Shown: in pieces, positions 1 to 266 of the stretch
How the letters are laid out: every line of letters starts with the position of its first letter
Position numbering within the stretch: position 1 is the first letter of the stretch
From: a virus
Lineage: Duplodnaviria; Heunggongvirae; Uroviricota; Caudoviricetes
Length of the DNA stretch: 10,190 bases
Virus record (IMG/VR): IMGVR_UViG_2740892233_000002
Direction: 5' to 3' (one strand)
Made by a program: the position numbers and the translations under genes
The notes under the pieces: model-generated
Told to the model about the DNA's origin: nothing
Seen by the model: the letters and a program-made list of their open reading frames with translations, nothing else
The model's database searches: none

Positions 1-130
1 CAGACGCAGGGTTACCCTCATAGTCGCTTTTCCGGTGCGATGGTGGAAGAAACCGGGATGTTTATTCATCATCACTTTGGATTGATGTATATGCTCTCTT
101 TTCTGACGTTAGTCTCCGACGGCAGGCTTC
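1..130. repeat. Inverted second copy of the lambdoid right-end segment (3' end of orf64-like gene plus downstream DNA)
   Basis: Reverse complement of 1..130 matches 9998..10127 at 128/130 positions; the two differences fall in the last codons of the orf64-like ORF (gatgatgaataaa vs gatgatggatgaa). Ends exactly at the N-run 131..140. Confidence 0.9.
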
Positions 131-140
131 NNNNNNNNNN
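131..140. other. Run of 10 N (probable scaffold gap or masked bases)
   Basis: Ten consecutive n. Flanks are unrelated in origin: inverted right-end copy on one side, V gene codon ~42 on the other. Confidence 0.95.
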
Positions 141-266
141 TACCTGTGCCAGTCGCTGCCAGTTATCGTCTGACAACGGGTTTGCATAGGCATCCCCCTG
201 ACCGTTATAAACCCACAGGGTGGTACCGGCACCTTTTACCGGTGCCAGAGGATTTGGTGTTGGCAT
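141..266 (-). CDS. V: Major tail protein gpV-like, N-terminal fragment only (~42 codons), truncated at the N-run
   Basis: ATG at 264..266; translation [42 protein letters not shown] resembles the lambda gpV N-terminus ([20 protein letters not shown]..., recalled). Sequence past the N-run is not V. Confidence 0.8.

Follow-up and report, generated by a model that had tools for sequence, protein, structure and literature searches.

The inverted copy of a phage right end that lies beside an apparently truncated gene V at the start of this DNA is, we are confident, a product of assembly and scaffolding, and not a biological junction, an inversion or a truncated gene. The window (by which we mean the whole stretch of DNA that was analysed, 10,190 nt) is better read as a string of five pieces, the first of which, 130 nt long, is out of place. 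Four results that are directly established carry this conclusion: the identity of the public record, a rule that describes where its pieces end, the native locations of both alleles of the repeated segment, and the lack, in finished genomes, of any arrangement in which the first piece is joined to V.

The window is an entire whole-genome shotgun scaffold, CCPX01000148.1 (GCA_000752875.1; 10,190 bp). This came out of an exact-sequence look-up, in a very large public assembly collection, of the two open reading frames that span N-runs (72-266 and 8598-9311, both on the minus strand), each of which occurs in one record only, namely CCPX01000148.1; the locus fetched under this accession is the exact reverse complement of the window. 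Since the window is the whole scaffold, there is no sequence upstream of position 1, and the leftmost piece is a free-standing end contig of 130 nt. Four N-runs (131-140, 662-671, 9101-9110 and 9526-9535), each exactly 10 nt long, divide the scaffold into five pieces, A (1-130), B (141-661), C (672-9100), D (9111-9525) and E (9536-10190); the sequence-only reading of this DNA made no use of the last three runs. All four being of the same length, the run at 131-140 is a placeholder for the scaffold join between A and B and not a sized gap, and this junction is without sequence cover, Ns being all that stands there. The frame at 72-266 (minus strand, 64 aa), which passes from the start of V through the Ns into ylcI antisense, appears among the gene calls of the public record and is an artefact of annotation.

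The earlier observation that 1-130 repeats 9998-10127 as its reverse complement, save for two substitutions, is borne out by sequence comparison: the two arms form an inverted repeat (about 98-98.5% identical once complemented, BLAST E=7e-63) and differ at exactly two places, where left 63 (T) faces right 10065 and left 66 (T) faces right 10062. The length of 130 nt has a technical origin at either limit, for the repeat stops on one side where the record stops and on the other where a contig does. The mismatches do fall, as had also been noticed, in the last codons of the "orf64-like" gene, which can now be named. The frame at 9872-10066 (64 codons) encodes a DUF3950 YlcI/YnfO protein (PF13132, 73 bits against a gathering cut-off of 25), and in the ylcI frame, going from the right arm to the left, the last sense codon changes from GGA to GAA (G64E) and the stop from TGA to TAA. 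Piece A (1-130, minus strand) thus carries codons 43-64 of ylcI/ynfO (130..65), a TAA stop (64..62) and 61 nt downstream, its allele ending in SDDE*; having codons 43-64 only, it sits downstream of most of the DUF3950 domain (residues 21-49). Its partner arm (9998-10127, plus strand) lies in the native ylcI position.

The inference drawn earlier from these two mismatches, that the copies are distinct loci, is well founded, both versions being natural ylcI alleles of finished genomes. The SDDE* allele is present, in exact form, in B1_2 (locus L006) and in the loci L002 (from E2865) and L003; the SDDG* allele of the right arm is present, likewise exactly, in strain 2313 (locus L001) and in the second prophage of E2865 (locus L008). 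Many of the finished genomes among the matches listed have an annotated ylcI with which piece A agrees at 100%, and the best match to its sequence is at least 99% in 692 records. In finished genomes the SDDE* allele runs on into the 5' half of ylcI, cos and the small terminase, and it does so in two contexts, a DLP12-type site (L002 and L003) and the B1_2 prophage. This last genome, which is finished, has both piece D and piece A at 100% identity, with A placed 306 nt beyond the end of D on the Nu1 side, that is at its native, Nu1-proximal site and in the orientation opposite to that in the window. In E2865 (L002, 7731-9000) an IS3-family element ends 2 nt from the base equivalent to the start of piece A.

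The gene order of strain 2313 gives the framework in which the two arms can be judged: lysis genes, Rha, ylcI on the opposite strand, small terminase, A, W, B, C, D, E, FI, FII, Z, U, V, G, T and H. The antisense ylcI is placed in the same way in B1_2 and in the second E2865 prophage, and in records of lambda-type phages a minus-strand ylcI homologue lies some 240-390 nt short of the right end. The right-hand arm is therefore native in both position and orientation, and piece A alone is out of place. The picture of a head module bracketed by inverted right ends does not survive this comparison: the right copy is the usual antisense ylcI between the lysis/Rha genes and cos, and what has been misplaced is a 130-nt piece. 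Finished E. coli genomes carry 141-10190 collinearly, at 99.4-99.7% identity in the best whole-window matches, and these best matches all begin at 141. An apparent extension of the V match by 4 nt into the end of piece A was discarded as an alignment edge effect, unsupported by the sequence of strain 2313.

Piece B opens with the first 42 codons of the tail tube gene V (141-266, minus strand, with an ATG start), cut by the contig end. The statement that the repeat copy meets V at about codon 42 is thus correct in that V runs from its start through codon 42 after the N-run, but the two do not abut, 10 Ns lying between them. The 42-aa fragment is recognised by PF16461 (Phage_TTP_12) with 30.4 bits against a cut-off of 26.1, over profile positions 1-25 of 135 only; the full 250-aa V with its TTP domain and a C-terminal Big_2 domain was seen in strain 2313 only. 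V is of full length (250 aa) and is followed by G, T and H in strain 2313, in B1_2 and in the locus L004, and the last two bear the same ISEc22 insertion in U as the window. Base 141 (T) is the first difference, after 77 identical nt, from an alternative V allele (C at this base in strain 105, locus L009), and piece B starts at 141 because the natural V alleles fork there; some 3,700 genomes have an uninterrupted V-U region across this position. The description of V as truncated cannot be retained: the gene is cut by the end of a contig at an allele fork, and in finished relatives, two with the very same U::ISEc22, it continues through its 250 aa into G-T-H.

The next gene is the tail terminator gene U, whose 3' part (274-601, minus strand) aligns to 8134-8461 of the strain 2313 locus and is interrupted at 601/602 by an insertion sequence; gpU is annotated as partial in L004 and in B1_2. 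Positions 602-661 are the terminal 60 nt of ISEc22 (IS66 family), collinear with finished genomes that have U::ISEc22, the rest of the element being unassembled. These 60 nt match copies of ISEc22 on plasmids at 100%, and they also match the IS end in L004 and B1_2. The insertion of B1_2 has an 8-bp target duplication (CATCAAAC) and terminal repeats GTAAGCGT.../...ACGCTTAC, and an insertion at the same site of U is present in the finished genomes B1_2, CAU16175 and O103 RM8385. Only one end of ISEc22 is present in the window, and the N-run at 662-671 conceals about 2.4 kb of the element. This placeholder stands between an IS-bearing branch (B) and an empty-site branch (C): positions 538-601 of B are the same as 8398-8461 of the strain 2313 locus, and after these common 64 nt comes the first difference, the next base being G in B (602, in the IS) and A in C (672, the empty site). 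To judge by these branches, with C opening on the base of the empty site, IS-bearing and IS-free copies of the module seem to be present together in the source strain.

Piece C (672-9100, minus strand) contains the 5' end of U, then Z, FII, FI, E, D, C, B, W, A, and Nu1 without its first 7 nt. It is 99.83% identical, with no gaps, to 8462-16890 of the strain 2313 locus (14 substitutions in 8,429 nt). At positions 1920 and 6917 of piece C there are nonsense changes relative to strain 2313, Q43* in FI and W570* in the terminase large subunit (gene A), and the gene calls of the public record split both FI and A. Either this is a packaging-defective prophage copy, or it is the faulty consensus of collapsed copies.

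The remaining two joins have the same character. On either side of the placeholder at 9101-9110 lie two parallel Nu1 5' ends, which are direct copies of 193 nt (8908-9100 and 9112-9304, 96% identical, 7 mismatches). The printing of these two Nu1 alleles in series creates a false in-frame reading frame of 237 aa (8598-9311, minus strand), which is called as a gene in the public record. Piece D (9111-9525, minus strand) comprises the second allele of the Nu1 5' end and the cos region, with cosN at 9495-9506, and is identical at 415 of 415 nt to 14158-14572 of the B1_2 locus. Across the placeholder at 9526-9535, pieces D and E converge on a common 64-mer, which forms an exact direct repeat (9462-9525 and 9628-9691); the bases preceding its two copies differ, and the 92 nt before it are unrelated. 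It is the printing of this 64-mer twice that makes the lambda cosN (GGGCGGCGACCT) appear twice in the scaffold, at 9495-9506 and 9661-9672 (minus strand). Piece E (9536-10190, plus strand) is made up of a nohD-type cos region (9536-9627), common sequence (9628-9997), ylcI with the SDDG* ending (9872-10066) and a flank of 124 nt, and can be aligned from end to end, collinearly and at 99.5%, with the second E2865 prophage, which has a nohD-type terminase, ylcI and Rha. The 92 nt at 9536-9627 are from the cos region of a nohD-type prophage, with a 546-nt small terminase such as is found in E2865 at 2.50 Mb and also at the DLP12 site. They are foreign to the Nu1 gene that precedes them, hence the D/E join is chimeric. 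When the pieces are mapped onto the strain 2313 and B1_2 loci, none of the joins B/C, C/D and D/E turns out to be contiguous DNA. At its right end the record stops in the middle of an 8-bp palindrome, GGAA/TTCC (10187-10194 as continued in L001, L006 and L008); a cause for the end of piece E at 10190 was sought in the reference loci and none was found.

The positions of the piece ends follow a simple rule. Each of the three right ends that have a paralogue in the window lies exactly 64 nt past the last distinguishing base: from 66 to 130 for A, from 9036 to 9100 for C, and from 9461 to 9525 for D. The three left ends after gaps that can be tested (B, C and D) all fall on the base where the copies compared first differ, following a common stretch of 64 nt or more. 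Those of B and C have been given above; for D, base 9111 (T) against base 8907 of C (C) is the first difference after 83 identical nt when the D-type copy of B1_2 is compared with C. One exception should be mentioned: the left flank of piece A is 62 nt and not 64, which makes the arm 130 nt long instead of 132. This pattern of ends fits a de Bruijn graph with k=65, in which the nodes that follow a gap would be printed without their k-1 prefix and gaps would have a floor of 10 Ns; both would be the behaviour of Velvet. Two other accounts of the left ends were considered. Were the left end of B to lie 64 nt before a distinguishing base, that base would be expected at 205, but the only mismatch to strain 2313 is at 195, and the model of prefix-less nodes fits; the idea that the Ns overwrite 10 real bases was dropped in favour of the same model. 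The "cut" of ylcI at codon 43 also has its place here, as it is the point where the allele of A merges into sequence that it has in common with the allele of E.

The explanation that we favour is then as follows. The source would be an E. coli strain with several near-identical lambdoid prophages, sequenced by short-read whole-genome shotgun. A de Bruijn-graph assembler with k=65 would break up the repeated prophages into nodes at each point of divergence or convergence between sister copies, and a scaffolder would string five of these nodes together with placeholders of the minimum length, 10 Ns. Piece A would be the alternative arm of a two-SNP bubble (9998-10127) in the antisense ylcI/ynfO, contributed by a sister prophage, and it would have been attached at the wrong end and in the wrong orientation, beside piece B. 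Among the three origins proposed from the letters, this corresponds to a scaffolder joining a contig end from another prophage copy, and this is the one that we keep; an adjacent inverted prophage and an inversion breakpoint in V we do not. The type of assembler and the true position of piece A in the source strain are what we infer from the end pattern and from the finished relatives. To judge by sequence identity, the home of piece A is most likely the same B1_2-like prophage that supplied piece D, and the prophage that supplied A probably supplied B and D together. At least two sister prophages would be represented in the scaffold, and most simply three: one copy without the IS and with the C-type Nu1, one with the IS, to which D and A belong, and one of nohD type, from which the start of E comes. 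As for the way in which A came to lie to the left of B in inverted orientation, two mechanisms were rejected, misread mate-pair orientation, which predicts a direct copy and not an inverted one, and a fold-back at the palindrome at 10187-10194, whose 8 bp are far too short for k=65; among the mechanisms considered, none was found that accounts for it.

The alternative that fares best accepts the join as broadly right: a second, related prophage would lie inverted at some distance to the left of V, and the N-run would stand for a large unsequenced stretch, in which the remainder of V, the tail genes and the morphogenesis genes of this second prophage would lie. In its favour, related strains are rich in lambdoid prophages (up to 27 places per genome matching the window, and 4-5 copies of ylcI in related STEC genomes); the two ylcI alleles prove that there are at least two loci, and the scaffolder did link A to B for some reason. 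We nevertheless consider this very unlikely. The three 10-N joins of the same scaffold that can be verified connect overlapping or parallel pieces, not ordered neighbours, and short-insert pairs are unable to bridge tens of kb. Furthermore, A does not occur within about 665 nt of the start of V on that strand in any finished genome, piece A is absent within about 5.6 kb in the top whole-window matches, and its native site in B1_2 is at the other end of the module. That the link reflects a genuine second lambdoid prophage, or a fragment of one, inverted close to V, possibly through an IS- or recombination-mediated rearrangement between sister prophages, is a notion to which we give equally little credence.

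A real rearrangement, whether an inversion or an IS-mediated deletion, with a breakpoint in V near codon 42 and a fusion to the 3' half of ylcI, has less still to recommend it, and we think that it can hardly be entertained. Rearrangements mediated by IS do occur in these prophages: L004 has ISEc22 in U together with a deletion that reaches the protease gene, and L002 has the IS3-family element 2 nt from the start of A. However, a truly novel junction produces unique 65-mers, so that a real breakpoint would have been assembled through, without Ns, and piece B, whose right end takes in 60 nt of ISEc22, has no foreign sequence at its left end (141). Both piece ends match forks to the base (that of A lies 64 nt past its last SNP, that of B is the base where the V alleles first differ), and a real breakpoint would therefore need a double coincidence. 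Finally, a search through 5,426 complete E. coli genomes for piece A joined to the start of V (the first 200 nt of B, with the Ns removed) gave no place that takes in both, which is to say that the V-ylcI fusion is seen in none of them. That a single locus was read twice, with the two mismatches as sequencing errors, is just as implausible despite arms 98.5% identical, for each variant recurs exactly as a natural allele of finished genomes, and it is by these two linked changes that the alleles are told apart.

The preferred reading, an artefact of assembly, places this scaffold in familiar company. Repeat-induced mis-scaffolding of lambdoid prophages in short-read assemblies of E. coli and STEC has the same ingredients, near-identical prophages, breaks at paralogue forks, tiny allele contigs, collapsed IS and Ns of fixed length, and nothing essential differs here; what is unusual is only that a leftover allele contig came to lie at the opposite end of the scaffold, inverted, where it forms a conspicuous terminal inverted repeat. 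That short reads resolve the prophages of STEC with difficulty has been remarked on in the literature; one published report states that the structure of the Stx2 prophage could not be fully resolved (PMC6602927). With the right end of lambda-type prophages, where an antisense ylcI lies just to the left of cos, the right copy in the window (9872-10066) agrees in both position and orientation, as it does with L001, L006 and L008, whereas the left copy is the 3' third of ylcI with 61 nt and has no cos or lysis genes beside it. Chromosomal inversions mediated by prophages are known in STEC, and the hybrid prophages that result from such recombination remain collinear (lysis, ylcI, cos, head, tail). 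The likeness to the window is that inverted, near-identical prophage segments occur in one genome, but these inversions are not known to set the 3' end of ylcI against codon 42 of V, and the window contains no sequenced junction of this kind.

The finding serves only as a caution for the reading of prophages in draft genomes. Terminal inverted repeats, "truncated" genes and doubled cos sites or gene starts, when they are found beside N-runs of fixed length in draft STEC-like assemblies, are artefacts of the linearisation of an assembly graph and not rearrangements, and open reading frames that read through the Ns (here of 64 aa and 237 aa) do not represent genuine proteins. The rule that pieces end k-1 nt past a distinguishing base offers a quick means of recognising such artefacts from the sequence alone.
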